From positions 352,001 to 416,000 of the forward strand of contig CP000066.1 in NCBI GenBank assembly GCA_000002445.1: a stretch of 64,000 nt of DNA. Direction: 5' to 3'. Shown in pieces: positions 17,860 through 49,536 of the stretch (position 1 is the stretch's first letter; each line of letters opens with the position of its first letter). The stretch is from Trypanosoma brucei (taxonomy: Eukaryota). The notes beneath the pieces were generated by a model, which made no database searches, was not told the DNA's origin, and was given only the letters and a program-made list of their open reading frames with translations. The position numbers were made by a program, and so were the translations under genes.

Positions 17860-17886
17860 TGTGTGTGTGTGTGTGTGTGTGTGTGT
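17860..17886. repeat. (GT)n microsatellite (mirror copy as (CA)n at 49505-49534)
   Basis: Read directly in the sequence. Confidence 0.95.
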
Positions 17887-23629: not shown

Positions 23630-26600
23630 AAATATATGCATATAAATATTAAAACTATTATATTTATGATGAGATACATGGGTTTTTTTAATACCGTCGG
23701 AAAAATTAATCAAATGTTTCTGTTTCAATATGTGCTTCCCTTTGGATGGCATAAAATATAATGGGGGGTGTGCAAGGTGTAATGTAAACATTTTTAGTTT
23801 TCGCTGTGGTGGCAGATGCTTACATATATTAAAATGATTTTATCGTTTCAGTGCCTAAGCCGTTTCTGCTTTGATGTCGGTGAGTGCCGAGCGAATTCGC
23901 GGATGATGTGCTGTACGAGTGGGGGATTACGTAAATAATTGATTTTTCGACTTATGTAAAGAAACGTATTTCGACATGCTTAAGATATTTTAAGTTAGGG
24001 AAATGTATACCCTTAAATGCATGCGGAGAGCGGCGGCAGGTGCTGTCGTCCACATTTTCCACAACGCTGAATACGACAGTACAGGCGAAAAAATTGCGAC
24101 AACATTCGTGAAGTGGGGGACTTGTATGTAAAGGTCCGAGAATTAAAAAAGTGTGGGTAAGCTTATGCAGATTAGGTCCCGAGTCCCCGTGACTCCTTTT
24201 CTATCAAATCTAGTGCATGCTGCGAGGACACCTTTTTGAGGTACTCCGACGCTGCGTTTTTAACGTCATTAATATCATTTGGGAATTTGAGCAATGAGGT
24301 AAGCGGTTGAGTTAGTGGGTAAGAATATTGCTTACTGGTAAGTGTGTTCTTAGGTTCAACTTACCAAATCAGGTAGATGTTGCCGATGTGTATGCCGGAG
24401 GGAGGTGGAAATGCAAGAGAGGGAGCCACTTCATTATTACATTTTTCGCGGATATGCAAGACGGTCACCTGCAAAGAATTTTGCTACGCGACTGAAAACA
24501 GAGAAAACAGAGTGTGTATAGGCTGAAGTATCAAAAAGGGGAGGCAAGTTCCCAGGGGGTGTTCTAGTATAAATGGCCCGAAAATTGAGAAAAAAAAGAT
24601 CGGGTACTGATTATCCAGTTAATGGCCTAAGACTGCTTGTGGTTGAGGTGTCTGTGTTTTCCCTAATTCATTCTCCTCTGGAGATGCAAATAAATTCATG
24701 TTTGGTGGTGTACTATATGACCGAAAGTTGTGTTCTTTGAGAATAATAAGGCGGTTGTATGCGGCTTCGTTTATGAGGAGCCGTAACGATTTGGGGCGAC
24801 TCTCCGCGATGGAGCGATGAGGGAGTTCACCGCCACCCGAGGGGGTTTTGGTCGATTTTGGAGATTTTGTAACATTGGGGCAGGGGCGAGAGAGTACTGA
24901 GGATATGTTAAGTATCCTTTCTCATAATTTGACTTAAAAGCGAAGTCTTACGTGGGGAGGAACGAGAGGTTACGTTGAACTTGTGCGTGCTTCCAGTTAG
25001 TATTCTGCTGGCTGTGTGGATGCACAACTTGAACCTGACTTACTTTTACCATATGCGGGAGACGGCGTATTCATGTCGACGAAATGTGGTGGTATCTGGG
25101 TATTGATCATATTGCCCGTTTGGCGCATCTACGATAACAATAGTGATGAGAGAGGTGTGCTGATTGCGTACGATGGTGCAACGTTATTTCAGGGGCAGTA
25201 TCGAAGTTGTATAATTTCATGTGCAGGCGAGTAGGATTGCTGGGAAGGAGAGTTTGTGTATGGTGCGTGTGCGAGAGTAAGGGCTATACGGCACCATAGC
25301 GAACTAAAGTGACTGAACTTATTTTCTCATTTGGTGCAAGGTCGCAGCGCAAACCAGCCACGAGTGGCACTCCCATAATAGGCGGCTCGTCGATACGTCA
25401 TGTGTATACTTCCAGAAAAAGTGCTCGTGCGGAGTAAGCAAAAACGTCATGTATATGGTTAGTGTTCACACGTTGGGAGCACAGTGTTTTATACCGAGAA
25501 GATATGGGTAATATTGCATATACAGTGGGTTTTTTTTAGCAAAGTAAGGAGTAACTTAGCAAACGGGTTGTGTGAAATGGCGTCTTTTTTCGGTGATGCC
25601 ACAATCGTCTGTGATGGCGAGGGAGGGAGGGTTGACATCAACGTAACCAATGTGAGTGTCTTCTGGACTGATGTGAGGAGCAGTGGAGTTCTGCTATTTG
25701 GAAGGATAACGAATGACAGGTATATTAACGTTCACAGAGGTAGACTAGATGCCAGGCTGCTTCTATTTCTCGTTCCTTCCTCGTGGTGACCGCGCCGCCG
25801 TTCTGCCCACAAATATGCATTACGTGTAAGTGGTGGTAAAGAAAGGGGGGATTGTTTACCTATCCCTCATGAAAGGACGTGTTAAAGGCGAAATGGCTTC
25901 TCAAAAGTGCAGAGAATGTTTTCTAGGTGGAGCACCGTCTTTCTGAGAACCGCGAGCAAGGGCTCACCCAGTTTGGTCAAGTGTTGTCTGCTTCATTTTC
26001 TATGCTTTGGTGTACCTCGCCTTTACAGTTTGAGGTGAAAGGGGAACATAATTAACTTAACCGCCCCCGCTCATTTGCACTCTGACTTCCGCAGTATGTG
26101 TTGTTTCTGCGTGGGCGTAGAGGAGCTGTTAGGCGAGTGGTGCCTTCACATTACGGAGGGATGAAATAACGAATGACAGACTGCAGTTTGTTTTTAACGT
26201 AACATGCATCTTTCTTTAGGTAGCGGACGTTGAACCCGCAGAAAGTGTGTTATTGTGACGTTAGAGGAAGAGGCAAGTCAAAAGATAAGCGGATACTAAC
26301 TAAACACTTTCGAGGCCGCCTGCATGGATAAATGGATAAATCAAGAGAAACAACAGATAAAACACGAGAATTACCTTTTATCGCGCGTCGCTCCTGCAGT
26401 AGGACGACCTTCTTCAGAATTCCTGGGCACAACTGCTGTCAGTACGTCCAGCAGGCTAGCTCGGGAAGAAAACTTAACCATAGTCTTCAACATACGCGCA
26501 TAAGTTCCTTTTGATTAAACAACCGGGTGGGATGGTTTTCCATCGTTTCCAGTCTACCAAGGGCAAATAGAAAAGCGGCAGCACCGCATTCATAACGCGA

Positions 26601-27404
26601 TTCATGCAGTGAGGACTCCTTCCTCGCCATCCGCGGCATGCCTTTTATACAATAAGGATCGCGCGACTCCGTGCTGCCTCCGCAGCCAAATAATTTTATC
26701 GTCGGCACCGTTTTGGTTCTACAGGGAAGGAGTGCCAGGCTTCAAACAAGTGCGGACATTTTGTGTTTGGGAAAGTGCTTTGTACCCCCGTCCCACACCA
26801 CCACCACTTTATGATTGCAGCAGAAAACATTCTTGAGGGGCCCGCCCACCTAGTGTCGAAAGTTGAGGGAACAGCACTTTCTTTACTCCTTGTAACGGTT
26901 GCAATTCTGAATTTCCTTCCGGTAAGTGACCTAATGGTAACGGGCAAGGTGCTGTCGCTTTCCTTGCTGCACTGGAAGGTGTCGAAAAGGGGGTGTCCTT
27001 CCTGTTGTCGGCACAGAAGTGGCATGGGTGAAGGTGGAAACAAAATGTGGGGAGAAGTATCAAACTTCAGTCAAAGGGCCTGTGCGTTGTTTGCATTGGT
27101 GGTACACGATGCCTGGAAGGTAAAAAAAAAGCGGCACATCGCGATTGGGAGCACTACTTGACCATTTGCGGTGCGGCGTGTGTAACACTAAAATATAAAA
27201 CAGTGATCGTGGGTAAGCAACAAACGACTGAACAGATTTATTATCTGGCCTCGCCTACTTGTATGTTGTGGTCCCTCGCTTCTTTTCCAATGTTCTTACC
27301 CACTCATCACTTCATATCATGCGTGGCTGAGTGTGAATTTCCCTACGTTCTATTGATACTGTCTTTTTCATTCTCATGTAGTCGCGTGTGCGGGACGCGC
27401 AAAC

Positions 27405-28307
27405 TTGTTGGATCTGAAAATGACGAGTGCTTCAAAAAAATCAACGGAAGAAAATAGTGAGGAAGTGGAATGTACCAATAGCTCCAGGAAACGGCGGATG
27501 AGACAGAGGGAACGGAACATATACATCTCGGAATGCCATGGAATAAAGGAGCTATCGTCGCTCGTACGTCGCGGGTTCCAGCAGATAATGACGGCGAGAG
27601 GGTTGTTTATATCTGGGTGCCCTGATCTCGTAAAACTGGATGATGGGACCAGTGGGGAAGAAGAGGGGGGAGAATATTACAGGCAGCTGGAAGAAGTCCA
27701 AGTTAGCAGGTGCCCTCGACTCACCGATTTAAGCGGGTTGGGGAAGTGCAAGTACTTGAAGGTGGTTGATATTTCTGACTGCCGAAAACTGGAAAACATA
27801 GGGGAACTTAAAAGTTGTCGAACACTGGAGAAACTCGCGCTCTCACGGTGCACAGGCTTGGTGGATGTGAATTTGAGGGGATTTGGTAAGTTGTTATCTT
27901 TCGATATTTTCAAATGTGCGAACTTGACAAAGATATGCGGACTTTTCGGATGCCCCATACTAGAAACATTAACCGTTGAGGAGTGTGGAGACGTGAAAGA
28001 AATGGAGGTACGAACTATACGAGGACGGGTGGAAACGCTGAGAATTGCAGGGAAGAGGGCTATGGAAAATGTGGGATTTTTGTGCCTCTTCACCAATATG
28101 AAAAAGCTCGCACTATGTGGGTGTGTTGGGACTGTCGCGGAGGTACTCGGAGAGGAGGCCGGTGGGCTTCCCCGTCTAAAATGGTTGGAGTTGATTGGCA
28201 TCCGCATGGAAAGGCAAATGAAGGATAAGCCTGGAAATGGTGTTGCAGCGACTGAGGAAGGAAATAACGCTAAACGGGTATTACCAATGATTGTTCAGAA
28301 CGAATGA
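27405..28307 (+). CDS. leucine-rich repeat protein (LRRP/ESAG8-like), short 300-aa member or fragment
   Basis: Tandem ~23-aa LRRs with the LxxCxxLxxL pattern (LSGLGKCKYLKVVDISDCRKLENIGELKSCRTLEKLALSRCTGL...), the same type as the 816-aa neighbour. The N-terminus is basic and its extent is uncertain. Confidence 0.5.
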   Translation: MLDLKMTSASKKSTEENSEEVECTNSSRKRRMRQRERNIYISECHGIKELSSLVRRGFQQIMTARGLFISGCPDLVKLDDGTSGEEEGGEYYRQLEEVQVSRCPRLTDLSGLGKCKYLKVVDISDCRKLENIGELKSCRTLEKLALSRCTGLVDVNLRGFGKLLSFDIFKCANLTKICGLFGCPILETLTVEECGDVKEMEVRTIRGRVETLRIAGKRAMENVGFLCLFTNMKKLALCGCVGTVAEVLGEEAGGLPRLKWLELIGIRMERQMKDKPGNGVAATEEGNNAKRVLPMIVQNE

Positions 28308-29469
28308 TCACCATCTTGACTAGCTGGTAAACTCATCGACAGTGATATGGGGCTGAAAACTATCACAGTCTCTCTTTGGAACAGCCTTTCTCGCACGCCA
28401 GATGGATATTACCACAGCGGGGTTTGTCATGTAATTACAGTGTGTATCTGAGTTTGAACGCGAGAATGGCCGGAAATTTTGTAGTTGTTGGTGTTTGTGG
28501 TTTCCTACGCAGGAAACCTTGTGATGGCGACAATTTCTTTAAACCAGTGCAAGTAGGCAGGAACACTGAACTGATTCAGTGCCACCTCAAAGTTGTTGAA
28601 AAGGTAGCCTGCGCCCAATAAGACCTTAAACAGACTTGCTATACGGTTCCTTTCGAAGTGGAAAACACGTTGTAGAGAGTAACTGTTAGTAAAAAAAAAC
28701 ACTATTACGAGATGACTAGGCGTGTGTGTGTGTGCAGGGGTGGTATTAAATTCTTATGTGTACTTGGGTGTTGTAGGTGTCTCTTATGGGAATTTCAAGA
28801 GTGGTCACTTGTTTGCCAGCGCGTGTGAGTGAGAAAAGGTTGTCGAGTGGGACGGCTTTTAAACTGCTTTATGAAAATGTGTATGTGGAAAAGTGTGCAT
28901 GGTGGGTAGTTGGTGCGATCCAACTTCAGGAAGTACCCGGTGACAATCAGCCATGTGGCGTGGGCGACCAAAAAAAACAAAGTTGGCAGATATTTTTTGT
29001 ACGTGGGGGAGTTGGGTTATGGAAAAAGCATATCATCAGCGCCATCGGGGGTTGGGAGGAGGCTGATAAAGTGAGAAGTGGGAGCGTTTAGGCTGTCTCC
29101 GGTGGTTTGTTTCACTTACAGTGGAAGTTGTCCGCCTTCTACCGATATTATGAGAGCCATGATAAACGCAGAGAAAGCAGTTGTCCCACCTATGCTTATA
29201 GGTACGTCGTTTCTATTGGCACACAACTGGAATACGTAAAGAGTTATGTGTTTTATAAACTCACGCGCATTTGTCGAGGAGATTGAAAAATTATGCAGAA
29301 AAGAAAACAGGGTAGTAATGTGTTGAATTTTATTCTGAAGACATACGTGTATGTCTACGACGGCTGTTAGTTGCGAAGAGCTGGTTGTTTTTCTCTGCTA
29401 TTGTCTCTGCTGCTTTACCTACCGTTTTTCCTTGATTTTCCTTGAAGCGTGTTAGGGAAAGTTCCATAG

Positions 29470-31920
29470 ATGGCAACACAGTTAAATAGTGATACGGTGA
29501 CAGACTCGTTTCCGAAAAGTGGGGAACAGCAATCGCGGTCAGACAGCGGGCTTGGTGAAAGGATGAACGCGGCAAGAAACAAAGGATGGAAAGAATTAGA
29601 TATATCCTATTTCAAGGAGGTGGAGGATGTGGGGAACCTCTGTGAAGTGGCAGGTTTGTTCTTGGAGGACCTAAACTTTAGCTGGTGCACGAACATCCGC
29701 ACAACTGGGTTGGAAAAAATATGCACAGTTGAGTGCTTTCCGAGTCTGCAAAGGCTGTATCTGAACGGCACAGGGACAAATGACAGATGCATCGACAAAC
29801 TCAGCCGTGGGAATCTAAGAGTTTTGGAGTGCGGGTATTGCAGAAACATTACGGACGTTAGGCCCCTTGAAAGGAATGAAACGCTGGAAGTACTTTCGCT
29901 TCGAGGGTGCCAGAACATCGTCCATGGGTTGGAGGATGTTTGCGGTCGGTGGCTAATAAATTTGAGAGAATTGTACTTGAGCGATATGGTAGCCGTCACG
30001 GATGCGTGCATAGAAGCTATCGGTAATAGTAAAAAAAGCCTGGTCCGCTTGGAATGTGAAAATTGTGAAAGAATCACAAACGTCAGTGCGTTGGGAAACG
30101 TCAAGACATTGAAGGTATTGTTGCTCAATCACTCCAAGAACATCGCAGAAGGAGTTTCTAATATCTTCGAAATATCGGAGCTTCAAGACTTAGGCTTCCG
30201 TGGTTTTGCTAAAATTACGCAAGTAAATTTGATGCCGTGGCAGCGTTGTGCGAGTTTAACAACCCTTGATCTCTCTGGATGCAAAAAAGTAACGAACTTG
30301 AATCTGGGTGGGGAGTGTAGAAAACTCGTGTGCCTTAAGCTTTCAGAGTGTCCGCAGCTGCGGGAAGTGGATATCACCGGGTGTGAAAGTTTGACTGCAC
30401 TAAATATTTCCGGACGTTGGCATCTTAAAGTTGTGAAATTGAATGGATGCAAGGAGTTGAAGTCGATTGATCTTTCCGTGTGTCCGCACCTTGAAGACGT
30501 ATATGGAGTATGCGACTGCAAAAACTTGGAAATTTTTAACCTTTGTTTTTGTTCACGACTCACAAAATTGGAACTGGTTGAGCTTGAAAAGTTAAAAATG
30601 TTGAATCTTTGCGGGTGTAAGGACCTTGAAGATATCGGAAGTCCAAGCAGGTGGGGCAAAAACTTGGTGGAGCTTAATGTTTCAATGTGCCGGAAGCTTA
30701 ACTACATGGATTTAAGCGGAAGAGTGAAGCTGGAGAAACTTAACCTTTCTCAATGCGACAGCCTTGTAGAGGTGAATTTAAGTGGGTGCCAAAACCTCTC
30801 TTCTTTACTTGATCTTTCAAACAGCAGGGAGCTCGAAATCTTGAATTTGTGCAACTGTGGGGAGTTGCCGGCGCTTAACGTTGACGGATGCGTGAATCTG
30901 CAAATACTGATTCTGAGCGGATGCCGCAGTCTGTCGACCATGAAACTTTCCGAATGCAACAACCTCAGGGAGACAGATTTTAGCGGCTGTGCGAAGTTGT
31001 CGGCTATCAAACTTTCCAGTAGAAGGGGGATAAAGTTAGTTAAATTGGACGGTTGTATAGATTTGATGTCTCTGGATTTGTCAGAGTGTGTGAGCCTTAA
31101 GGATTTGATTGGAGTAAGTGGCTGTACCCAACTCAAGTCACTCAATCTCTCAGGTTGCAGCAGGCTCGCTGATGTCGCCGCACTAAAGGACCTCAAGGGG
31201 CTGGTGAGGCTCAACCTTTCCAGGTTGGTGGAGGTTGTGGACCTGAGCATGCTGACTGGGCACGAGGATCTGGAGGAGCTCAACCTATCTCAATGTAACG
31301 CACTTGCCGATATAAGCGGACTGAAGGGCGAATGCTCGACAAAACTGATATCTTTGAATGTATCATGGTGCAGGAGCCTTTCGGCTATCTGTGTGCTGAG
31401 TGAGTGTTGCCGTAATTTGACCACGCTGGATATTTCAGGTTGCTGGAACCTCGATGATATGAGCGTGTTGGGGTCGTTAAAGAGCTTGAGTGTTCTTAAT
31501 CTTTCTTGGTGCAGTCAACTGACCGACATAAATATGTTAGCGGGTTTGAACTGCTTGGCTGTTCTTAACCTTTCTTGGTGCAATCAGCTGGTTGATGCGA
31601 GTGTAGTGAGCGAGTTGGAAAGTATAGCCATTCTTAACCTTTCATATTGTTGTGAATTAGCGCGTTTAAATTTGAGCGGATGCATAAAACTAAAGTGCCT
31701 TGATATCTGTGGATGCGTATCCCTCAAACATTTAACTGGATTACGCAAGTGCACGAATTTAGAATCACTCTTCGCTTGCGGATATCGCGACGCGGCAGAA
31801 GACGTTCGTGACGAGTTCCTGAACATTCCATGCTCCGCTACGTTACATATCGATGAAAGCACGGACCGGGAGGTAATACAGGAACTCATGGGTTGGGGTG
31901 TTAGAGTCAAAACAATCTGA
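29470..31920 (+). CDS. leucine-rich repeat protein (LRRP, ESAG8-related LRR family), 816 aa, about 25 LRRs, no RING finger seen
   Basis: Long array of 22-24-aa Cys-containing LRRs (L-S/N-L-S-x-C-x-x-L-x-D/E-x-x-x-L). This is the repeat type I recall for T. brucei ESAG8/LRRP1. It is the last + strand gene before the strand switch. Confidence 0.8.
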   Translation: MATQLNSDTVTDSFPKSGEQQSRSDSGLGERMNAARNKGWKELDISYFKEVEDVGNLCEVAGLFLEDLNFSWCTNIRTTGLEKICTVECFPSLQRLYLNGTGTNDRCIDKLSRGNLRVLECGYCRNITDVRPLERNETLEVLSLRGCQNIVHGLEDVCGRWLINLRELYLSDMVAVTDACIEAIGNSKKSLVRLECENCERITNVSALGNVKTLKVLLLNHSKNIAEGVSNIFEISELQDLGFRGFAKITQVNLMPWQRCASLTTLDLSGCKKVTNLNLGGECRKLVCLKLSECPQLREVDITGCESLTALNISGRWHLKVVKLNGCKELKSIDLSVCPHLEDVYGVCDCKNLEIFNLCFCSRLTKLELVELEKLKMLNLCGCKDLEDIGSPSRWGKNLVELNVSMCRKLNYMDLSGRVKLEKLNLSQCDSLVEVNLSGCQNLSSLLDLSNSRELEILNLCNCGELPALNVDGCVNLQILILSGCRSLSTMKLSECNNLRETDFSGCAKLSAIKLSSRRGIKLVKLDGCIDLMSLDLSECVSLKDLIGVSGCTQLKSLNLSGCSRLADVAALKDLKGLVRLNLSRLVEVVDLSMLTGHEDLEELNLSQCNALADISGLKGECSTKLISLNVSWCRSLSAICVLSECCRNLTTLDISGCWNLDDMSVLGSLKSLSVLNLSWCSQLTDINMLAGLNCLAVLNLSWCNQLVDASVVSELESIAILNLSYCCELARLNLSGCIKLKCLDICGCVSLKHLTGLRKCTNLESLFACGYRDAAEDVRDEFLNIPCSATLHIDESTDREVIQELMGWGVRVKTI

Positions 31921-34900
31921 GACCGGCATGATTGCTCGCCAGGTGGTGTAAGCAGTTGTGTGGCCGAAGCTGATCTTTACACATTTTTTTTGCGCGCGGC
32001 ACAGGGTCAAACACATGCTACCGGAAAGCAGGCTAGCCTATACCCACTCCCTTTCATAGACAGACAACTTTTTTTCTGGAACAAGTCCAGTTGCGCCATC
32101 ATTTTAAGCGTTGAACGTAGTGGCTGCCATCGTACGGGTGCGCGGGGCCGTAGGTGCACACACCTTTCGGCCACATATGTCTACTTCAATTGAGGCTATG
32201 ACGTTGCTTAACGCTAAGGTGAAATGACAACTCTACGTGAATAGGTGCTTTTATTTCAAACATGACCTAATAGTTACGAAATACATAACATTCTTTGATA
32301 ACACAGCGGATTATTCACCACCCAACCACTATCACCTTGTCTTCTCGTATTTTCTCTCGCCCTTTCATTCCAGCACACTTACGAACTGGTATTTTCCACG
32401 CTTCTTCTCATTTTTTTTGCATGCCCACACGGTCCTTAAAGTTCACAAATTTTAGTTTGTAACCCGCCTTCTAAATGATAGAAGTTGTTGTGACAAAAGC
32501 GTAAGAGGTCGCCGAATACACATATCAACGCAGACGAAGCCACGACAAAAAAATTAAAAGGCACGCATAAAGCGACATATGTTATCCATAAGTACTAACA
32601 CATTGGGTAACAACACCCCGAGGCATCGCATCTTCAACAAAAATGTAAAACAAATGATCATTAGCCACACTTTTACAGCGCCGAAATGTTATCTGCTTTT
32701 CTTGTAAACCCCAAACCTCCCAAACATATTTAAAAAAAATTTAGCACAATTCTGATTTGTAACTTTTTCTTACCTCCGCTAAACCTACCTCTTTTAGCAC
32801 CCATCGATTAAGTACCTAGCATCTCCCTATGTTTACTTTTTGTTTGACATCTTTTAGCTAGCGGTCGACTTCGCATTACTACTTCACCCACTGCGGCGTT
32901 AGGTCTGTTCGCGCTGGCAACAGTGATGCCCCCGGCACCTTCTGATTTAGTTGCATTGTTACGTGCCATGGTTTCAGCCGACGCATACCTTTAAACCTTG
33001 CTGTTTGGATTTCTGTGTGCCGCATCGGAGGGAGGCAGCGCTTCCTTTTCTACATCGTCGGGCCTAAACAACTTTACCAAGAAAATTTCCACATCTACGC
33101 GAAGCCGTTAACCTCTTTTCTCTGGTCTAATCAAGCCACATTATCCACTTAGTGCTCAGGGGCTATTCATTGTAGTAAGTGTGTGGGAGTTTCCACTCAC
33201 CCTACTCTTAGAGCGTCACAGCAGCCCTCTATTTTGTGCCCACGCCAGTGCTACAAGTTCTCGATGAGGGTACCTTGTTCCATACATTTTGTCGGGTGGT
33301 GCGTGCATTGGAGATTCTTTGGAACCGTTTTCAATGTCAGGAACGCTCCGCTTCTCAATCTCTTCCCATTCAATTTTTATCTGGGTGTTTGTTCCCATAA
33401 AGTAGAGTACCCCCCGCCACATCAATGCGCTCGGCTGCACCTTCAATAGAGTAATTGGCTCCGACGCCAAGACCACGTGGCCAGTGCCGTAAAGGTCTTC
33501 CGTTCGCCCGTAGGACCTGATTAAAGTTGAAAAGACGTCCAAATGCGTTGCGTTGGTGTGTGGAATAACGTGGCGACGAAAAGTGGTAACTTCAACAGAA
33601 GGTAGCGGCTTTCAGTGAAGGCTCTTTTTCCAAAGCGTCGTTGACACCTCACCCGCCAGTGAGGTAAGTGGCCGCTAATTTTACACCCATGGGGTTTCCT
33701 CAACTGGCAAAGCCCATTCTCTAAGGTTGAGCTTCCTGTGGCCTCGTCTGCTCGCAGGTGAAATTTATGCAGTTTTATTCTTCACTAACTGTTTGATTTT
33801 CCGCGTGGTGTAAAGTGGGCAACAAAAACGAGGGGGTATTATTGTAGGCATCAAGCAATCCTAAGGGTGTACTTCCTTCGGAGTGGACTCAAATTCTTTA
33901 CAACCAAGAGCCCTACCAATTAAAAAGAAGGTGCAAGCAAGAAACCTCACTGCGCGTACAAAAGTAAACAAAAGAGGTGAATAATAACGGCCGAATACTG
34001 TAAAAAAAAACTAATGCGGAACAGTTGTGTGTGTTGTGGTTTGATCAATGTTATTCGCAGCCTCGGGCTCCCACCAAAAAACTAAGACTTGTAGGAGAGT
34101 GGTGTGTGACAACCAAGCTTGGGTGTTCTTGCAGTCAGTCAGAAAGTGGTGGTTATTTTTCAATTATAACAATGAGCACTATAACTGTACTAAGGAACTT
34201 TAGAAAACAGACACGAAGAGTCTTGCCACTAGCAGTACCGTTGAGTTGGAGTCAAAGTTAAATTAGGAGCGGTTTCCAGTTCCCTGCAGACCACCAGAGT
34301 TAACACCAACCTCTTCTTCAGCATCTTTCAAAGTTCGCCACCGCTGGAGTGTCAGCAATTGCGCTTTAAATATCACCTCTCGACCATGTGGTGTTCTATG
34401 CGAGAAGTGATGTGGCTACCACAAACTTTGTGCCTTTTGTGTTCATTTCCATGGACCTCCCTAGAGTTCCATCAAGTAGCCCACCTGCATTCAATGTTTC
34501 ACTAACTGCATACTACAGTGGTGTACGCGGCATTCTAGCAACAGCCTTCCTCAGTCAGTCGTGTCTCACCTCGAGGTGTTTAATCTTGTGACGGCTACTT
34601 GGCGATGGTCTCTAAGTTCTTTGGCCGTAATGCACCTTATATTTGTGTCACTGACAGAATTCTCAAACCCACTATCTGTTGTGCGTTCCGCTAACCGCTG
34701 TAACGACCTATTGGCTTCTCCCACTTCCGCAGATGGGTCCTTCGTTTCTAGGAGATTGATTCGTAGCATCGTCTGCGTTCTTGTATGTCCTCCCTTCCTT
34801 TGCAAACACCCCCACCCTGTAACCCCCATACCCATCACCCTCATGTTCTTTTTGTTCACCTTACTCTCCTGTCCACCTATCTGTATCACCGGACTGTTGT

Positions 34901-36093
34901 TGTATCTCTACTCCAAAACATGCAACACTGTTCCACGTAACTTTCGCAATTTTCCTCACTACACAAATTTCCACGAACTCCTTAAACCTCCGAAAGCGAC
35001 GAATCGGCCCCACTTTGGTGATATCCCCCTCAACCTTGTCAAGTATCCCCCTGCTCTTCCCTTGTGATGCGGTTGTTGAAAACGACTAATACACACAAAA
35101 CTCCCAGTGTACTCCATCCTACCACAAAAAAAAAACATATAGTTGCATCCTCCATCGCCTGTTACCAACATTTGATTTCCGATTATTTTTTGTATGCGCA
35201 GCATAAAGTTCCTTAAATTACCCTCACACCATGATATTTATAGTGGTTAACAACAGTCTCTCTCCTATCGATAAAGGGGTGAACCAGCCGCTTTGCACAC
35301 ACTTTGTGCCCGGCTACATCTTTTTGTCTCTAAGGTGAGGGCATTTTCCCGTGAATTTATGATTTCACCGCATTTTTTTCCTCCAAATTTCTGCCAACTC
35401 TGTATTGAAACAACTGAACTCATTCTATCAAATATTCCGTTAATTCTTGAGCACATCAGCACACACTCTCGAAAACCCGGTGAATGCTGCGACAAAACCT
35501 CCATCGGAGCGATCACGCTTTAGACAGAAATGCAATTCCTGAGAACATTACCGATAAAACGTGTAACCATCCGCACTACATTCAACTCTACACTTTTCTG
35601 GGAGTCTTTACCACACACCTTTATCCCTTCTATTCACTTAAGGTGTTAAATCTAATTTACTCAATACCTATTTCAAGGGATTGTCAATTCCATCTTGTTA
35701 AAAAAGGGACAAACCAGCTTGGAAGGAGTTTTCCTTTCTATTCCGCATTCTTTCACTTCACGGGATACTGAGAGTATTGTTCAGTCAATATTATTGAAAA
35801 AAAAATGTCAACACACTGCTGTAGCAAAAAAAAAAAAGAAAGCATAACTTGAGTGATATTTGAATCACATCACGTCGCTTACTATATGAATTTCCCATTT
35901 ACATTTGCTATCCTCTAATTCACATCCCTCCCCTGCCTTGAATCCACTAGTGTTTACCTGTTGTTGACGTTACCATCGTTAAACGTCAGAAGAGCCTTTT
36001 TTGGAATCACGCCCGTGCTCATTCTGACGTTGCTTTCCTTTTCTCTTAGTTTCCCGTCTTACCTGATATTTGCCAATTCAAACCAGGTTTTAC

Positions 36094-37194
36094 TTAATTT
36101 TTGGCATTGCCAATTTTCCTGTTTGACTCTTCAAACTCTTTTTGTAGCTTTTCAATGGCATCTGCGAGCGTTCTCTTATCATTCTCGTAGTCTTTCAGAT
36201 CCCTCATTTCGTTGAAAACTTTTAACAACTCCCTCATCCACGGTATATTCTTAATATCTCTGTTCCTACCCCTAACCACGTAGCGCACACGGTGGCCAGG
36301 GGCTTCTTGGGGCAGAATCCAGAGCCGCCAGAAGCTGAACTTTCTCCTATCACCAAAGACATAGGTAGTTCCGGTACATCCATCAACACCGTGGTTAATC
36401 ATGTCGCGGAAGTCGTTTACTAGTTTGTTAAACCCTTCTTGTGGGCCTTCCATACTTGAGCACTGTTCTTTGAGAAAATACCACCTTTCCCCCGCGTCTT
36501 CATCTGGTCTCCACACCGCCCTATTATCTCCCCTAGCGCAACGACTACAGCAGAGCTGAGTTTCTCTTCCCAAATTCATACGAGGCGCGCACAAACACAA
36601 CAAATCCCTACTCAATGATACGGACGCTTTAAGCTTTTGTGAACGTGAGAGTTGCTGCTCACATACCTGTCTCCTGTCGGAACTGCGTGCTTTAATTTCT
36701 TGTGGTCGATATGGAACACCATACAGCGCGCGATTAATACCTTTTTCGAGATCACTTGCTTTCAAAACCCATCTCCGATTTTTGGTTATATTTTGGAATA
36801 TCTGCGCAACGGAAAGAACCTTTTTTCTAATCTCCACCACTTCACGTTCGGACAATCCTCCTACCGAAAGTAGGGTTGTATTTCCCCTAGTTGCCAATTC
36901 TTTTTTCGATTCATTCCAAAACACTTTGTGGAGTGCACAGTTTCTTTTCCCCGCGCCTTCGCAAGTTTTGTTCAAATCCCTGTCTCCACTCATTTCCAAA
37001 TACATTGCTCCAATTCGAGCCGCCCCTTTAGTGATTTCCTGTGCTTCTTTCATCTTTCCAAGTGCTGCTTCTGCCAAATTTATCATGCCACACAATGTCT
37101 TAAACTCATCCCCGTTAACTATCCGCCGATCACCCGAGACAGTTGCCGGGAATACCAGCGCAAGCAAAACAGTGCAAAGATTTATAGCGCGCAT
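36094..37194 (-). CDS. surface/secreted protein B, copy 1 (366 aa). Signal peptide present, no hydrophobic C-terminus, so it is secreted or partners with a GPI-anchored protein.
   Basis: Signal peptide MRAINLCTVLLALVFPATVSG, NGDEFKTLCG and DLLCLCAP motifs shared with gene A, several NxS/T sequons. On the - strand, consistent with the right-hand gene block. Confidence 0.7.
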   Translation of the reverse strand: MRAINLCTVLLALVFPATVSGDRRIVNGDEFKTLCGMINLAEAALGKMKEAQEITKGAARIGAMYLEMSGDRDLNKTCEGAGKRNCALHKVFWNESKKELATRGNTTLLSVGGLSEREVVEIRKKVLSVAQIFQNITKNRRWVLKASDLEKGINRALYGVPYRPQEIKARSSDRRQVCEQQLSRSQKLKASVSLSRDLLCLCAPRMNLGRETQLCCSRCARGDNRAVWRPDEDAGERWYFLKEQCSSMEGPQEGFNKLVNDFRDMINHGVDGCTGTTYVFGDRRKFSFWRLWILPQEAPGHRVRYVVRGRNRDIKNIPWMRELLKVFNEMRDLKDYENDKRTLADAIEKLQKEFEESNRKIGNAKN

Positions 37195-40100
37195 TCTCTC
37201 CCTTCACTTCAATCAACAACTTCACCTCTTAAAAATACACAAGAAGATCATATAAAAATGCGAATGCATACCCCACATGCACCTTTGAATAAGTTATAGG
37301 AGTTGATAGAAAGGTAAATATACTACAAGTCAAATACCAACATTTGATGGATGTGCTTCTAAAAGTAAAAAAAGACTTAAGTAGTGTTAGATGGCAGTTT
37401 ACAAAAGTGGAGGTAAGTGTCCTTGGTGCCAAATCGACGCATGCTCTGGCATTTCATTTGGACCTTGATTTCTGCTGTAGGGAGGTTGCATCACTTCCGT
37501 AAATCTTGGGCTTATCCACTGTAGAAATAACCTATGACACTTTATACTTCCGAAGAATTAACTTTTTTCATTGTTATTTTCTTTGAGGAACACAGAAAAT
37601 CTGTACGAAGGTGGTTTTGAGTTGGGCTTTTGTTTTCACCAGTTTCTTCTGCATTTCGCATCCACAAAGTTTTGCAGACTCTACTTTGGTTGCCTGTTAT
37701 TTCGTTTGCCTTAGTAGTTGCATTTTTTTCTTTCAGTTTTGGCATACATAAACAAACGCCGTTACTGGTGCCGTCGTAAATTAAGCAAAGGCGGTGCCGC
37801 AACGTAAATTTGCCCGAACATTGGCGAGTGCCCAGTTCTTCATCTCCTCTAAACGAGCGGGAAATCTCATTCTGACTTGACCTCTGCGGTTTGTGTTTCT
37901 CCAAAGGAACCGCTCATACATCTGACACATCTAAAAACGCAAGTTTCAATGCAACACCACTATGTTTTCGGCAGTCTCTGTCATTCAAAAATTATTATCC
38001 CCATAGCAACCATTCAATCTTCCAATTATTTTCCACAAACCCGACTGTGACATTAAGAATTATCGTGCGCTTTCCAGTTGAGATGACGTGCACATAGGAG
38101 AGACAAATTCAAAAGATAGAGTAAAAATGTTAAAGTTAAGTTTGCTAATAAAGCGATATCGTTTTTGAACCATCGGGTAGTCACATTTTTGATGGTTAGG
38201 TTAACAAAATGCTGTTTTTACAGGAAAACATCAGAGTTGTCCGTGACGTGTCTTAATCAGTTACGTCGCTGAATTCCAAGCTACTAAGAGCGGTCCCGCG
38301 TTAATTTTTCCAGATCTTAAACCGCTAAATGTATCATTTTCTAGTTAACCTCAAGTTCTGATGCATTTTCACGCAGGAGCCTGCACCCAAAATTGTAATT
38401 CGAGGCTACGTTACAAAACACCACCTAAAACGCACAATTACAACTCTTCATCTCCAGCACTTGGACGTGCGCATCGCACACAATGACCACCTGCCTTCTT
38501 TGAACTCAATCTGATGCAGAAAAAAAGCGCATCTCCCCTCTCCGACAGCGAAAAAAGCATGCATGCACCCACAATCGCCACGAAAATAGTTTCCCCTCTC
38601 ACCATAAAATCTTCCAATAATCCTTAATCTACCTAAAAAAATATAAGAACAGAGTAAGTGACCACGTATAGAATCATTCCCAATCAAACCGTTCACTACG
38701 AGCAAGACTATGTCATATGCCGATCACTTGATCCGCACATTTCATCAAGCTTGCCACGTACTGTCTTTATCCCATTAGCTACTAATCATCGGTTTTATTA
38801 CCTATTTCCCACCAATCCCGCACGTCCACCAATAAGAGCAATTTACATTTTACGCAGTACGCCAGTGCTCCTCGATTAAGTACCTAGCATCTCCCTATGT
38901 TTACTTTTTGTTTGACATCTTTTAGCTAGCGGTCGACTTCGCATTACTACTTCACCCACTGCGGCGTTAGGTCTGTTCGCGCTGGCAACAGTGATGCCCC
39001 CGGCACCTTCTGATTTAGTTGCATTGTTACGTGCCATGGTTTCAGCTGACGCATACCTTTAAACCTTGCTGTTTGGATTTCTGTGTGCCGCATCGGAGGG
39101 AGGCAGCGCTTCCTTTTCTACATCGTCGGGCCTAAACAACTTTACCAAGAAAATTTCCACATCTACGCGAAGCCGTTAACCTCTTTTCTCTGGTCTAATC
39201 AAGCCACATTATCCACTTAGTGCTCAGGGGCTATTCATTGTAGTAAGTGTGTGGGAGTTTCCACTCACCCTACTCTTAGAGCGTCACAGCAGCCCTCTAT
39301 TTTGTGCCCACGCCAGTGCTACAAGTTCTCGATGAGGGTACCTTGTTCCATACATTTTGTCGGGTGGTGCGTGCATTGGAGATTCTTTGGAACCGTTTTC
39401 AATGTCAGGAACGCTCCGCTTCTCAATCTCTTCCCATTCAATTTTTATCTGGGTGTTTGTTCCCATAAAGTAGAGTACCCCCCGCCACATCAATGCGCTC
39501 GGCTGCACCTTCAATAGAGTAATTGGCTCCGACGCCAAGACCACGTGGCCAGTGCCGTAAAGGTCTTCCGTTCGCCCGTAGGACCTGATTAAAGTTGAAA
39601 AGACGTCCAAATGCGTTGCGTTGGTGTGTGGAATAACGTGGCGACGAAAAGTGGTAACTTCAACAGAAGGTAGCGGCTTTCAGTGAAGGCTCTTTTTCCA
39701 AAGCGTCGTTGACACCTCACCCGCCAGTGAGGTAAGTGGCCGCTAATTTTACACCCATGGGGTTTCCTCAACTGGCAAAGCCCATTCTCTAAGGTTGAGC
39801 TTCCTGTGGCCTCGTCTGCTCGCAGGTGAAATTTATGCAGTTTTATTCTTCACTAACTGTTTGATTTTCCGCGTGGTGTAAAGTGGGCAACAAAAACGAG
39901 GGGGTATTATTGTAGGCATCAAGCAATCCTAAGGGTGTACTTCCTTCGGAGTGGACTCAAATTCTTTACAACCAAGAGCCCTACCAATTAAAAAGAAGGT
40001 GCAAGCAAGAAACCTCACTGCGCGTACAAAAGTAAACAAAAGAGGTGAATAATAACGGCCGAATACTGTAAAAAAAAACTAATGCGGAACAGTTGTGTGT

Positions 40101-42162
40101 GTTGTGGTTTGATCAATGTTATTCGCAGCCTCGGGCTCCCACCAAAAAACTAAGACTTGTAGGAGAGTGGTGTGTGACAACCAAGCTTGGGTGTTCTTGC
40201 AGTCAGTCAGAAAGTGGTGGTTATTTTTCAATTATAACAATGAGCACTATAACTGTACTAAGGAACTTTAGAAAACAGACACGAAGAGTCTTGCCACTAG
40301 CAGTACCGTTGAGTTGGAGTCAAAGTTAAATTAGGAGCGGTTTCCAGTTCCCTGCAGACCACCAGAGTTAACACCAACCTCTTCTTCAGCATCTTTCAAA
40401 GTTCGCCACCGCTGGAGTGTCAGCAATTGCGCTTTAAATATCACCTCTCGACCATGTGGTGTTCTATGCGAGAAGTGATGTGGCTACCACAAACTTTGTG
40501 CCTTTTGTGTTCATTTCCATGGACCTCCCTAGAGTTCCATCAAGTAGCCCACCTGCATTCAATGTTTCACTAACTGCATACTACAGTGGTGTACGCGGCA
40601 TTCTAGCAACAGCCTTCCTCAGTCAGTCGTGTCTCACCTCGAGGTGTTTAATCTTGTGACGGCTACTTGGCGATGGTCTCTAAGTTCTTTGGCCGTAATG
40701 CACCTTCCATTTGTGTCACTGACAGAATTCTCAAACCCACTATCTGTTGTGCGTTCCGCTAACCGCTGTAACGACCTATTGGCTTCTCCCACTTCCGCAG
40801 ATGGGTCCTTCGTTTCTAGGAGATTGATTCGTAGCATCGTCTGCGTTCTTGTATGTCCTCCCTTCCTTTGCAAACACCCCCACCCTGTAACCCCCATACC
40901 CATCACCCTCATGTTCTTTTTGTTCACCTTACTCTCCTGTCCACCTATCTGTATCACCGGACTGTTGTTGTATCTCTACTCCAAAACATGCAACACCGTT
41001 CCACGTAACTTTCGCAATTTTCCTCACTACACAAATTTCCACGAACTCCTTAAACCTCCGAAAGCGACGAATCGGCCCCACTTTGGTGATATCCCCCTCA
41101 ACCTTGTCAAGTATCCCCCTGCTCTTCCCTTGTGATGCGGTTGTTGAAAACGACTAATACACACAAAACTCCCAGTGTACTCCATCCTACCACAAAAAAA
41201 AACATATAGTTGCATCCTCCATCGCCTGTTACCAACATTTGATTTCCGATTATTTTTTGTATGCGCAGCATAAAGTTCCTTAAATTACCCTCACACCATG
41301 ATATTTATAGTGGTTAACAACAGTCTCTCTCCTATCGATAAAGGGGTGAACCAGCCGCTTTGCACACACTTTGTGCCCGGCTACATCTTTTTGTCTCTAA
41401 GGTGAGGGCATTTTCCCGTGAATTTATGATTTCACCGCATTTTTTTCCTCCAAATTTCTGCCAACTCTGTATTGAAACAACTGAACTCATTCTATCAAAT
41501 ATTCCGTTAATTCTTGAGCACATCAGCACACACTCTCGAAAACCCGGTGAATGCTGCGACAAAACCTCCATCGGAGCGATCACGCTTTAGACAGAAATGC
41601 AATTCCTGAGAACATTACCGATAAAACGTGTAACCATCCGCACTACATTCAACTCTACACTTTTCTGGGAGTCTTTACCACACACCTTTATCCCTTCTAT
41701 TCACTTAAGGTGTTAAATCTAATTTACTCAATACCTATTTCAAGGGATTGTCAATTCCATCTTGTTAAAAAAGGGACAAACCAGCTTGGAAGGAGTTTTC
41801 CTTTCTATTCCGCATTCTTTCACTTCACGGGATACTGAGAGTATTGTTCAGTCAATATTATTGAAAAAAAAATGTCAACACACTGCTGTAGCAAAAAAAA
41901 AAAAAAGAAAGCATAACTTGAGTGATATTTGAATCACATCACGTCGCTTACTATATGAATTTCCCATTTACATTTGCTATCCTCTAATTCACATCCCTCC
42001 CCTGCCTTGAATCCACTAGTGTTTACCTGTTGTTGACGTTACCATCGTTAAACGTCAGAAGAGCCTTTTTTGGAATCACGCCCGTGCTCATTCTGACGTT
42101 GCTTTCCTTTTCTCTTAGTTTCCCGTCTTACCTGATATTTGCCAATTCAAACCAGGTTTTAC

Positions 42163-43263
42163 TTAATTTTTGGCATTGCCAATTTTCCTGTTTGACTCTT
42201 CAAACTCTTTTTGTAGCTTTTCAATGGCATCTGCGAGCGTTCTCTTATCATTCTCGTAGTCTTTCAGATCCCTCATTTCGTTGAAAACTTTTAACAACTC
42301 CCTCATCCACGGTATATTCTTAATATCTCTGTTCCTACCCCTAACCACGTAGCGCACACGGTGACCTGCGAGACTGTGTGCCATGATCGGATAGCGCCAA
42401 AAGCTGAATCCAACCCCACCCCCCAAAGTATATGCCGTCCCTCTGCATTCATCTTCACCGCCGTACGTAGCCTTGCGAAAGTTGTCCACCAGTTTGTTAA
42501 ACCCTTCTTGTGGGCCTTCCATACTTGAGCACTGCTTTTTAAGGAAGTGCCATCTTCCAGTTGCATTCTTATTTGTTTCCCACATACCTTCATTTTGATT
42601 CCTAACACACTCTTTGCAGCAAAGATGGGCTTTCCATCCCAAATTCATACGAGGCGCGCACAAACACAACAAATCCCTACTCAATGATACGGACGCTTTA
42701 AGCTTTTGTGAACGTGAGAGTTGCTGCTCACATACCTGTCTCCTGTCGGAACTGCGTGCTTTAATTTCTTGTGGTCGATATGGAACACCATACAGCGCGC
42801 GATTAATACCTTTTTCGAGATCACTTGCTTTCAAAACCCATCTCCGATTTTTGGTTATATTTTGGAATATCTGCGCAACGGAAAGAACCTTTTTTCTAAT
42901 CTCCACCACTTCACGTTCGGACAATCCTCCTACCGAAAGTAGGGTTGTATTTCCCCTAGTTGCCAATTCTTTTTTCGATTCATTCCAAAACACTTTGTGG
43001 AGTGCACAGTTTCTTTTCCCCGCGCCTTCGCAAGTTTTGTTCAAATCCCTGTCTCCACTCATTTCCAAATACATTGCTCCAATTCGAGCCGCCCCTTTAG
43101 TGATTTCCTGTGCTTCTTTCATCTTTCCAAGTGCTGCTTCTGCCAAATTTATCATGCCACACAATGTCTTAAACTCATTCCCGTTAACCAGCCATTCCGA
43201 ACCCGAGACAGTTGCCGGGAATACCAGCGCAAGCAAAACAGTGCAAAGATTTATAGCGCGCAT
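42163..43263 (-). CDS. surface/secreted protein B, copy 2 (366 aa). Identical to copy 1 except for a ~90-aa mosaic patch and a 5-aa patch near the mature N-terminus.
   Basis: Same frame, length and termini as copy 1. The differences are confined to residues ~210-300 and ~22-27. Confidence 0.7.
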   Translation of the reverse strand: MRAINLCTVLLALVFPATVSGSEWLVNGNEFKTLCGMINLAEAALGKMKEAQEITKGAARIGAMYLEMSGDRDLNKTCEGAGKRNCALHKVFWNESKKELATRGNTTLLSVGGLSEREVVEIRKKVLSVAQIFQNITKNRRWVLKASDLEKGINRALYGVPYRPQEIKARSSDRRQVCEQQLSRSQKLKASVSLSRDLLCLCAPRMNLGWKAHLCCKECVRNQNEGMWETNKNATGRWHFLKKQCSSMEGPQEGFNKLVDNFRKATYGGEDECRGTAYTLGGGVGFSFWRYPIMAHSLAGHRVRYVVRGRNRDIKNIPWMRELLKVFNEMRDLKDYENDKRTLADAIEKLQKEFEESNRKIGNAKN

Positions 43264-44342
43264 TCTCTCCCTTCACTTCAATCAACAACTTCACCTCTTA
43301 AAAATACACAAGAAGATCATATAAAAATGCGAATGCATACCCCACATGCACCTTTGAATAAGTTATAGGAGTTGATAGAAAGGTAAATATACTACAAGTC
43401 AAATACCAACATTTGATGGATGTGCTTCTAAAAGTAAAAAAAGACTTAAGTAGTGTTAGATGGCAGTTTACAAAAGTGGAGGTAAGTGTCCTTGGTGCCA
43501 AATCGACGCATGCTCTGGCATTTCATTTGGACCTTGATTTCTGCTGTAGGGAGGTTGCATCACTTCCGTAAATCTTGGGCTTATCCACTGTAGAAATAAC
43601 CTATGACACTTTATACTTCCGAAGAATTAACTTTTGTTTGTTTTTTCCCTTTATGCTAGTTGTTCCAGCCATTGCTCGACGTCTTCTATAAACTGAAGTT
43701 TACAGTTGGTGGAGTCGAGTCATTAAAAGGTTATTGAGATGTAATAATACTCTGTAGCGTGAAGCATCATCATTGAATATGAAATGAACTTCCCCAACAA
43801 CATCGACCATCTGACGCAACGCCACACACTTCACTCGAGTGCACCCCTTCACCCTCCACTTACTATCATAACGGGCGCACAAAAACAAAGACTGCAACCA
43901 AAGCCTGTCAGAACCATGATTTACGAAAATCATAAAACAGAAACTTCCACGGATAAGTTAGCATACGGCATTTACGTCTGAGCCGTCTGCCTTCGAAACT
44001 GAATATCAGCTTCCGATCTCACACAAAAACTTGGCATAAGTTTCCTGTACCAGCAGGAGCCACACAAAAATATAACAAATGCACATAAACAAAACCTCCT
44101 TCCTCCCCCTCCAGCTTTTTATTATAAATCACAATCATGTTAATATATGTAAGTATCTGCCACCACAGCGAAAACTAAAAATGTTTACATTACACCTCGC
44201 ACACCCCCCATTATATTTTATGCCATCCAAAGGGAAGCACATATTGAAACAGAAACATTTGATTAATTTTTCCGACGGTATTAAAAAAACCCATGTATCT
44301 TATCATAAATATAATAGTTTTAATATTTATATGCATATATTT

Positions 44343-46621: not shown

Positions 46622-47161
46622 TTATTGCGATTCCCGTTCCTCCGCATTCTTAATGCTTCTTTCCTTTTCTTCAGTCCAACCATTTGCTTCTATCATTTGT
46701 TGCGACAGACAACTACACGGGTATGTGGTAAAATCACGCGGGGATTGTTTGGCACATTCCTCTAAAGCAGTCCACATGCTTTTTGACACGTTGTTGACAC
46801 AACACCAAGTGTTTTTATCCCGTACCTTCTCAGCACAGCACATCAAATCGTCCCGCCACCGTGGGAGTAATTGCTCACATGTGGGTACTCGAAAATCATC
46901 ATCATCATCATCATTATCATCTTCATCACTTTTGGATGCCGCAACAATCGCAAACACTAGCACAAAAACCGTCTTTTTCATTACATGGCCAATTATATAA
47001 CTCATTTTGCCTACACACTGAGATGCACTTTCAAAAAGACGAAGGCTTGTGATTGGAGGAGGAGGAGGAGAAGACTCAAAAATTAAAGAGAGAAAATATG
47101 CAAAGAAGACCATCCGGTGGTAACTCAACATGGATTTTTTCCGGCATATTATGTGCGGCAA
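46622..47161 (-). CDS. small Cys-rich acidic secreted protein, right-arm copy. Its poly-Asp tract is 3 residues longer than the left copy and it reads PPPP where the left copy reads PSPPP.
   Basis: Mirror ORF. It differs only by a GAT-repeat length change and one substitution. Confidence 0.45.
   Translation of the reverse strand: MPHIICRKKSMLSYHRMVFFAYFLSLIFESSPPPPPITSLRLFESASQCVGKMSYIIGHVMKKTVFVLVFAIVAASKSDEDDNDDDDDDFRVPTCEQLLPRWRDDLMCCAEKVRDKNTWCCVNNVSKSMWTALEECAKQSPRDFTTYPCSCLSQQMIEANGWTEEKERSIKNAEERESQ

Positions 47162-49505: not shown

Positions 49506-49536
<31 letters not shown>

Follow-up and report, generated by a model that had tools for sequence, protein, structure and literature searches.

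Is a cluster of leucine-rich repeat (LRR) and surface-protein genes in the interior of Trypanosoma brucei chromosome 3 the remnant of a telomeric bloodstream expression site, or does it belong to its chromosome-internal surroundings? The cluster lies in a stretch of 64,000 nucleotides (here called the window; GenBank assembly GCA_000002445.1, contig CP000066.1, positions 352,001 to 416,000 of the forward strand). An initial annotation, made from the sequence alone, had described the region from 23831 to 44139 of the window as carrying a set of genes resembling expression site-associated genes (ESAGs), and had read it either as a relic or chromosome-internal analogue of an expression site or as a locus supplying the surface proteins of a specific life-cycle stage. 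Our analysis shows that the region is an already annotated cluster of variant surface glycoprotein (VSG)-related (VR) and LRR protein (LRRP) genes at the point where two transcription units converge, that is, an ordinary chromosome-internal locus. With a probability of roughly 85%, the cluster is a T. brucei-group-specific filling of a convergent strand-switch region and not a decayed expression site. The family membership, chromosomal setting, stage bias, and dependence on histone H3.V and base J of this cluster are all published already.

The cluster lies at a convergent strand-switch region

An exact-sequence look-up of ten open reading frames (ORFs) found seven of them in the protein collection as entries of T. 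b. brucei strain TREU927; the window ORFs are exact protein matches to chromosome 3 entries annotated as "VSG-related", AAA ATPase, CAAX protease, and kinase. The locus corresponds to Tb927.3.1470-1520 and its spacer part to Tb927.3.1480-1510 (systematic names from two papers, Jensen 2009 and PMC3006207). All long ORFs up to position 31920 are on the plus strand and all of those from 36094 on are on the minus strand. Together with a change in the sign of GC skew at ∼32 kb (+0.18 at 30–32 kb versus −0.11 at 32–34 kb), this strand distribution indicates a convergent strand-switch region. The translated minus-strand frames of the zone between the two units (Table 1) are without a Pfam match, and tRNA and Rfam scans of the whole window gave no match.

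The housekeeping surroundings noted in the initial annotation (DnaJ, AAA ATPase, CAAX protease, and kinase) were found on the flanks. Genes for DnaJ, an AAA ATPase, and a CorA-like transporter lie on the left, and genes for a CorA-like transporter, an Rce1/CAAX protease, Rab3GAP, a kinase, and MRB1590 on the right. In the arrangement that we favor, two polycistronic units, presumably transcribed by RNA polymerase II (Pol II), would converge and end in the interval of ∼32–36 kb. The plus-strand unit would finish with a VR gene, here called A, a short LRR ORF, and an LRRP gene, and the minus-strand unit with another copy of A followed by the VR genes B2 and B1. B1 and B2 are located within the interval given in the initial annotation (23831-44139), whereas the two copies of A lie in flanking inverted repeat arms, ∼200 bp outside it.

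Table 1. Coordinates of the VR/LRRP locus and its repeats in the window
Feature	Position	Strand	Match or partner
VR gene A, left copy (Tb927.3.1470; AAZ10182), 365 aa	22532..23629	+	Pfam VSG_B 6.1e-31, residues 55-260
VR gene A, right copy (Tb927.3.1520; AAZ10187), 365 aa	44343..45440	-	Identical to left copy
VR gene B1 (Tb927.3.1500; AAZ10185), 366 aa, last gene of minus-strand unit	36094..37194	-	Pfam VSG_B 1.6e-67, profile 1-352/352
VR gene B2 (Tb927.3.1510; AAZ10186), 366 aa, 86% identical to B1	42163..43263	-	Pfam VSG_B 1.1e-62
Main divergent patch of B1, codons 205-300	36295..36582	-	B2 partner 42364-42651
Small divergent patch of B1, codons 22-29, right after signal peptide	37108..37131	-	B2 partner 43177-43200
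Short LRR ORF Tb927.3.1480 ("hypothetical protein, conserved"), 300 aa, 295 aa from first ATG	27405..28307	+	Pfam LRR_EndoS, LRR_4
LRRP Tb927.3.1490, 816 aa, last gene of plus-strand unit	29470..31920	+	Pfam LRR_4 1.3e-32
Non-coding convergence zone of two transcription units	31921..36093	.	GC-skew sign change
Direct repeat copy R1, bears B1	32804..37581	-	blastn 97.6% to 38872-43647
Unique segment U, 1.29 kb, between R1 and R2	37582..38871	.	No Pfam match in minus-strand frames
Direct repeat copy R2, bears B2	38872..43647	-	blastn
Left arm, inner part (small Cys-rich secreted ORF and A)	20818..23839	+	99.5% over 3031 nt to partner 44133-47162
Right arm, inner part	44133..47162	-	Partner 20818-23839

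A, B1, and B2 are VSG-related genes

A, B1, and B2 are VR genes with a b-type VSG N-terminal domain. B1 and B2 match the whole VSG_B profile, corresponding to a complete class-B VSG N-terminal domain, and carry a signal peptide and several N-glycosylation sequons. The C-terminus of B is a charged helix without a hydrophobic tail, indicating that B has no glycosylphosphatidylinositol (GPI) signal. No Pfam match to a VSG C-terminal domain was detected in A, B1, or B2.

An AlphaFold2 model of B1, based on an alignment of 26 relatives, reached a mean predicted local distance difference test score (pLDDT) of 80 and a predicted template modeling score (pTM) of 0.79. The top Foldseek matches of this model are the class-B VSGs VSG11, mVSG1954, VSG3, and VSG615 (probability 1.00, E ∼1e-5), and ISG65 ranks far below them. 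A full HMMER search with B against 1.84 billion representative proteins yielded 27 matches with E <= 1e-3. Names could be assigned to 20 of these matches, and each is a VSG or VSG-related protein from the T. brucei group (Trypanozoon); no member of this set is labeled ESAG2 or belongs to T. congolense or T. vivax. The best relatives are a VR protein encoded on chromosome 11 (40% identity), Tb927.7.180 (37%), and a putative VSG (37%). In a word-indexed homolog search with B, B2 was the sole result other than the query.

The two copies of A have no difference over 1098 nt in TREU927, and one protein carries both accessions. A has a signal peptide, a partial b-type VSG N-terminal domain (the second half of the VSG_B profile), several N-glycosylation sequons, an Asn/Asp-rich stretch, and a short hydrophobic tail. 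It is only distantly related to B, with 27% identity over 109 residues and an N-terminal EFKTLCG motif in common, and sequence searches of PDB with A and with B gave no match. The C-terminus of A, NGNPNPNPLKILLLLLLN, consists of a low-complexity stretch and ∼10 hydrophobic residues and is a marginal GPI signal at best. The stop codon of A (23629) is lost in T. b. gambiense, T. b. equiperdum, and another T. brucei strain (sequences P0002, P0004, and P0005), where the annotated protein is 433–437 residues long versus 365 and extends 70 residues further into AT-rich downstream sequence. Because of this loss between strains, the true C-terminus and the anchoring of A are uncertain. Thus, of the earlier description of A and B as GPI-anchored or secreted surface proteins, the signal peptides and the VSG_B domain were borne out, whereas a GPI signal is absent from B and marginal in A.

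VR genes were defined by Marcello and Barry (2007), as summarized in Jensen 2009. The locus shares with them the b-type VSG N-terminal domain, the position at a chromosome-internal strand-switch region, the lack of detected 70-bp repeats and of a canonical VSG C-terminal domain, the bloodstream-form-biased mRNA, and, judged by the named relatives of B, a probable restriction to the T. brucei group. We see no difference in kind between A, B1, and B2 and other VR genes, and their GenBank records already name them "VSG-related". The location of VR genes at chromosome-internal strand-switch regions is likewise in the literature (Marcello and Barry 2007, as summarized in Jensen 2009; Jensen 2009; Jackson 2013). 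Details that we did not find described are the presence of the A copies in near-identical inverted arms, the restriction of B1/B2 differences to two old patches, and the lack of an anchor signal in B.

The LRR genes are related to ESAG8 at the family level

Both LRR ORFs of the initial annotation are real and match Pfam LRR families. The larger one was identified as Tb927.3.1490 by its C-terminus -VRVKTI, which is printed in PMC3006207. It contains Cys-containing LRRs of ∼22–24 residues, an entry motif KGWKELDIS (KGWKELDISYF), and the C-terminal tail ELMGWGVRVKTI. Over the repeats, it shares 29% identity with ESAG8 (P0038; 630 residues, with a RING finger) and 27% with LRRP1. In a homolog search with the 816-residue protein, LRRP1 and ESAG8 were the only trypanosome matches, and bacterial and plant LRR proteins appeared in the same score range, indicating that the repeats alone are not diagnostic. 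It is the non-repeat parts that tie Tb927.3.1490 to the trypanosome LRRP/ESAG8 family. Its entry motif has counterparts in ESAG8 (GRWKILNLSGC) and in an LRR gene on chromosome 11 (SGWKILDLSGC), and its tail in ESAG8 (ELKRRGVHIF), LRRP1 (ELRKRRVHIR), and the chromosome 11 gene (ALKGKGVAVKLW).

A regular expression that detects the RING finger of ESAG8 found none in the plus-strand frames of 23840-32200, and there was no Pfam zinc-finger match. The smaller ORF, Tb927.3.1480, combines LRRs with a basic RKRR cluster and has no RING, LRRP tail, or entry motif; a 295-residue gene is called at its position in T. b. gambiense and T. b. equiperdum, too. A simple search pattern for a nuclear localization signal (NLS) picked out this RKRR cluster and nothing in the 816-residue LRRP, although it also misses ESAG8 itself.

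Judged by their sequences, the LRR genes appear to be members of the family that also gave rise to ESAG8 and not ESAG8-type genes. Tb927.3.1490 shares the Cys-containing repeats, the entry motif, and the C-terminal tail with the ESAG8/LRRP family, and differs from ESAG8 in the absence of a RING finger, its location outside an expression site, and an identity of only 29%. The term "ESAG8-related", which had been applied to both genes, is therefore accurate at the level of the family, through the motif and tail of the 816-residue LRRP, and does not extend beyond it.

We also considered that the two LRR ORFs could be fragments of one LRRP of ∼1500 residues. This was rejected, as the 1.16 kb between them show no LRR similarity; moreover, proteins of 295 and 816 residues are called separately in T. 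b. gambiense. In T. b. equiperdum, the LRRP ortholog (L005, 16949-19394) matches in two reading frames that change around residue 540, and the annotation has no gene call for it. Either a frameshift, making the gene a pseudogene, or an indel error of long reads would account for this change of frame.

Lineage specificity and a counterpart on chromosome 11

VR genes are specific to T. brucei (Jackson 2013). For a synteny comparison, we used T. cruzi and T. conorhini. At the Rce1/CAAX loci of both species the gene order hyp584-kinase-hyp380-Rab3GAP-CAAX is kept, and a strand switch follows right after the CAAX gene. The sequence beyond it (10 kb in T. cruzi and 3 kb in T. conorhini) contains no CorA-like, VR, LRRP, AAA, or DnaJ gene. 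The lack of the cluster genes from these loci indicates that the locus is not a single-copy arrangement conserved across kinetoplastids, an alternative that had been named in the initial annotation.

The closest relative of B, the VR protein of chromosome 11, comprises 356 residues and has no C-terminal domain. In T. b. equiperdum, its gene (L003, 10001-11071) is flanked by an LRR-coding sequence (6457-7434) and an LRR gene (13321-14553) on one strand, followed by a strand switch. The LRRP genes Tb11.02.1564 and Tb11.02.1580 as well as the VR gene Tb11.02.1566, which by its number lies between them, are all up-regulated in bloodstream forms (Jensen 2009). Tb11.02.1564-1580 and L003 probably represent the same chromosome 11 locus. 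This locus shares with the one on chromosome 3 a B-type VR gene among LRR sequences and the end of a transcription unit beside a strand switch. In contrast to chromosome 3, its VR and LRR genes are on the same strand, its VR gene is not duplicated, and there is no inverted repeat in 21 kb. With this second locus, B-type VR genes that accompany LRR genes where a transcription unit ends may represent a pattern. We did not find this parallel described in the literature and regard it as a modest refinement.

Hallmarks of an expression site

The TTAGGG motifs of the region had been taken as one of the features reminiscent of telomeric expression sites. The hexamer occurs 19 times in the window versus 23.2 ± 4.7 expected, and is hence not enriched. 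The only (TTAGGG)2 dimers in the window, one per arm (23581-23592 and 44380-44391), are in-frame coding sequence of A. They are part of a CCCTAA stretch of 2.5 units (plus strand; 23581-23597 and 44375-44391) that provides the codons NPNPNP near the A C-terminus. T. b. gambiense and the T. brucei sequence P0005 have one repeat unit less at this place (NPNP).

The GT-rich core motif of the 70-bp repeats had no match in the region, and Tandem Repeats Finder reported only short microsatellites and no large tandem repeats. In stop-masked translations of only the transcribed strand (plus strand for 23840-27400, minus strand for 31921-36093 and 37195-38900), which cover ∼9.4 kb of the non-coding spacer, Pfam detected no remnants of other ESAGs, VSGs, RHS genes, or retroelements. 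On the main annotated ORFs (A, B1, B2, and the two LRR ORFs), Pfam recognized no family besides VSG_B and LRR. As the scans made revealed no TTAGGG enrichment, 70-bp core, ESAG remnants, RING finger, or VSG C-terminal domain, the reading as an expression-site relic or analogue is not supported.

Such a relic could stem from a telomeric expression site or from telomere healing or fusion, and would make the LRRPs decayed copies of ESAG8 and A and B decayed copies of ESAG2 or VSG genes. The repeat type, entry motif, and tail that the LRRP shares with ESAG8 would fit this scenario, as would the b-type VSG domain of A and B, which is also reported for ESAG2 (Jackson 2013), and the proximity (∼250 bp) of the arm boundary to the (TTAGGG)2 dimer in the 3′-terminal part of A. 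However, this dimer is coding sequence whose copy number varies between strains, and ESAG2 does not appear among the named relatives of B. Moreover, the closest relatives of ESAG8 are reported to be Tb927.1.3670 and Tb927.3.580, both with RING and NLS motifs, and ESAGs to be monophyletic, without frequent transfer between expression sites and other loci (Jackson 2013). We consider descent of this cluster from an expression site extremely improbable.

The locus does share with a bloodstream expression site a VSG-fold family, an LRR family, and higher expression in bloodstream forms. In contrast to such a site, it is not telomeric and, in the scans made, has no 70-bp repeats, no ESAG1-7 or 9-12, and no complete VSG. 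Instead, its genes lie at the converging ends of two housekeeping polycistrons, and repression of its LRR genes appears to depend on H3.V at a site recorded to carry both H3.V and base J. What the locus has in common with an expression site does not go beyond shared superfamilies.

Chromosome-internal loci have been described as the sources of ESAGs and not as remnants of them (Jackson 2013). Descent could thus have run in the direction opposite to that of a relic, with VR/LRRP loci like the one on chromosome 3 as the pool from which ESAG2 and ESAG8 were recruited. This scenario was proposed for ESAG8, derived from LRRPs, and for ESAG2, derived from b-type VSG-like genes (Jackson 2013), and the recurrence of the VR and LRR pairing on chromosome 11 is consistent with it. 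In Tb927.3.1490, however, neither the RING finger nor, with the simple pattern used, the NLS of the proposed progenitors Tb927.1.3670 and Tb927.3.580 was detected, and the relatives of B are VR or VSG proteins only, with <=40% identity. That this type of locus served as the progenitor is very improbable in our view.

Stage-biased expression and chromatin marks

The values in Table 3 of Jensen 2009, comparing cultured bloodstream forms with log-phase procyclics, show up-regulation of Tb927.3.1470/1520 (A) by 4.3-fold, Tb927.3.1490 by 4.8-fold, Tb927.3.1500 (B1) by 33.1-fold, and Tb927.3.1510 (B2) by 12.5-fold; Tb927.3.1480 is the sole annotated gene of the locus that is not listed in the up-regulated table. 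VR proteins as a family are enriched in the bloodstream-form surface proteome (Gadelha 2015). In line with these data, the second suggestion of the initial annotation, a locus for stage-specific surface proteins, agrees with the 4.3- to 33-fold bloodstream bias and the surface enrichment of VR proteins. A and B would accordingly be invariant secreted or surface proteins resembling the VSG N-terminal domain and present mainly in bloodstream forms. Their stage regulation would be achieved by post-transcriptional control of mRNA abundance, which we assume to act here as the usual trypanosome mechanism.

For strain 427, S4 Table of Reynolds 2016 groups Tb427.03.1480 and Tb427.03.1490 into one transcription unit and records it as carrying H3.V as well as base J. 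Upon knockout of H3.V, Tb427.03.1480 increased 2.2-fold (16 to 36 to 50 reads per kilobase per million, RPKM) and Tb427.03.1490 1.8-fold (RPKM 9.5 to 17 to 22.5). This increase, together with the presence of H3.V and base J, which mark Pol II termination zones, suggests that the LRR genes are partly repressed in an H3.V-dependent manner at a site with termination marks. No per-gene evidence for the locus was found in the supplement of Kieft 2020.

Alternatively, the B genes, possibly together with A, could be transcribed from a stage-specific promoter of their own, used by Pol I or serving as a separate Pol II start, and form a small chromosome-internal unit functionally analogous to an expression site or the procyclin loci. 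The 33-fold change of B1 (signal 13722) and the 12.5-fold change of B2 stand against 4.3-fold for A and 4.8-fold for the LRRP (Jensen 2009), and according to Black 2020 it is not known which polymerase transcribes VR genes. Moreover, the B genes are not among the genes derepressed upon loss of H3.V and base J, though the LRR genes opposite to them were. As B1 and B2 are multi-mapping outside their patches, however, their absence from RNA-seq lists weighs little. The B genes are colinear with the housekeeping genes upstream of them on that strand, the arrangement of an ordinary polycistron. In addition, fold changes of this size are common in T. brucei as a result of post-transcriptional control alone, and both points count against a separate promoter. 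Overall, we regard a dedicated promoter as quite improbable.

Several points nevertheless weigh against our interpretation as an ordinary locus at the converging ends of two Pol II units. No per-gene proteomic or localization entry for A, B1, or B2 was found in the supplement of Gadelha 2015. The H3.V and base J data come from strain 427 and cover the two LRR genes only, not A or B (Reynolds 2016), and the polymerase transcribing VR genes has not been shown directly (Black 2020). The bloodstream-form bias of B1 exceeds that of its neighbors (values from Jensen 2009), and the synteny comparison covers only T. cruzi and T. conorhini.

Repeats and patchy gene conversion

The repeats of the initial annotation were confirmed as a 4.8-kb direct repeat with 97.6% identity and near-identical inverted arms that end at 23839 and 44133. 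The two copies of the direct repeat, R1 and R2, have a start-to-start distance of 6068 bp and differ at 128 positions. Most of these differences fall into two patches of the B coding sequence (102 in 36300-36600 and 10 in 37100-37200), and a further 7 are found at the right boundary of the repeat. For codons 205-300, the synonymous divergence (dS) between B1 and B2 is 1.45 and the nonsynonymous divergence (dN) 0.37, whereas both are 0 outside the two patches. Recent import of a patch from a third VR gene was considered and rejected: no relative is >35% identical to either patch, indicating that the B1 and B2 patches are each other's closest relatives.

Comparison of strains showed that copy number and patch type of B vary. 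The locus of T. b. gambiense DAL972 is colinear and has a single B gene, with the whole 6068-bp unit missing. This B is a hybrid, with codons 22-29 of the B2 type and the main patch of the B1 type, which is exactly the product expected if the copies had crossed over or the assembly had collapsed. In Lister 427 sequences, both patches are of the B1 type. Thus, the small and the main patch assort independently among strains. The T. equiperdum protein P0014 (467 residues, from a 6.4-kb contig) carries a B2-type followed by a B1-type main patch, with an internal duplication of 101 residues. It is either a real product of unequal crossing-over or an assembly artifact of the repeat.

The copies of A are identical in TREU927 and one residue apart in T. 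b. gambiense; between the two subspecies, 8 differences are found over residues 1 to 300. Taken from these comparisons, the A copies appear to evolve in concert and the locus as a whole by patchy gene conversion. The evolution of the cluster would thus involve both gene conversion and unequal crossing-over between its own repeats. We did not find the patch-wise conservation of two B variants or the strain differences in B copy number described elsewhere; both are modest refinements.

B1 and B2 might represent two variants of an anchor-less, ligand-binding protein with a VSG fold that are purposely retained as a pair. The patches would then be as old as their saturated synonymous divergence (dS ∼1.45) suggests, and would have been kept under purifying selection (dN/dS ∼0.25). 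We advance this idea tentatively and consider it unlikely. From the helix order in the B1 model (H28-69, H116-158, and H318-365) and the usual topology, we infer that the patches may be located at the membrane-distal end of the VSG fold. Still more speculatively, B, which has no anchor signal, could pair with a possibly GPI-anchored A, by analogy to ESAG7 and ESAG6 in the transferrin receptor.

The inverted arms consist of the pairs 17687-18671 / 48721-49707 and 20818-23839 / 44133-47162, each with 99.5% identity, and enclose a spacer of 20.3 kb. They are interrupted by middle parts (18672-20817 versus 47163-48720) that are unrelated in sequence. As a consequence, the two CorA-like genes of the arms are chimeric, with their first ∼183 residues identical and the remainder roughly half identical. 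A role of the arms as known siRNA-producing inverted repeats was rejected, since Tschudi et al. 2012 list seven of these, with not one on chromosome 3.

Both arms also contain a small ORF (20972-21349, plus strand; 46622-47008, minus strand) of ∼125 residues with a signal peptide, an acidic run, and eight cysteines. The right copy is longer by three Asp residues. Gene calls for this ORF exist in T. b. gambiense (186 residues) and T. b. equiperdum (129 residues), and its sole Pfam match is weak and sub-threshold ("Meg"). The outer arm segments carry (TG)13 and (AC)14 microsatellites at 17860-17886 and 49506-49534. Further features at the left of the window are an ORF of 3629 residues at its end (1759-12648, plus strand) and two (AT)n runs (12816-12843 and 13346-13377) just upstream of and within the start of the DnaJ ORF region.

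Implications for VR/LRRP loci

As an ESAG-like cluster, the locus adds nothing new. It is, however, a compact example of T. brucei lineage-specific surface-protein genes that are placed at the ends of converging transcription units, with repeats keeping them in flux. If the patches of B1 and B2 mark a binding surface, VR proteins would be candidate invariant receptors of the bloodstream form, which would make them of interest for host–parasite interactions and for vaccines.

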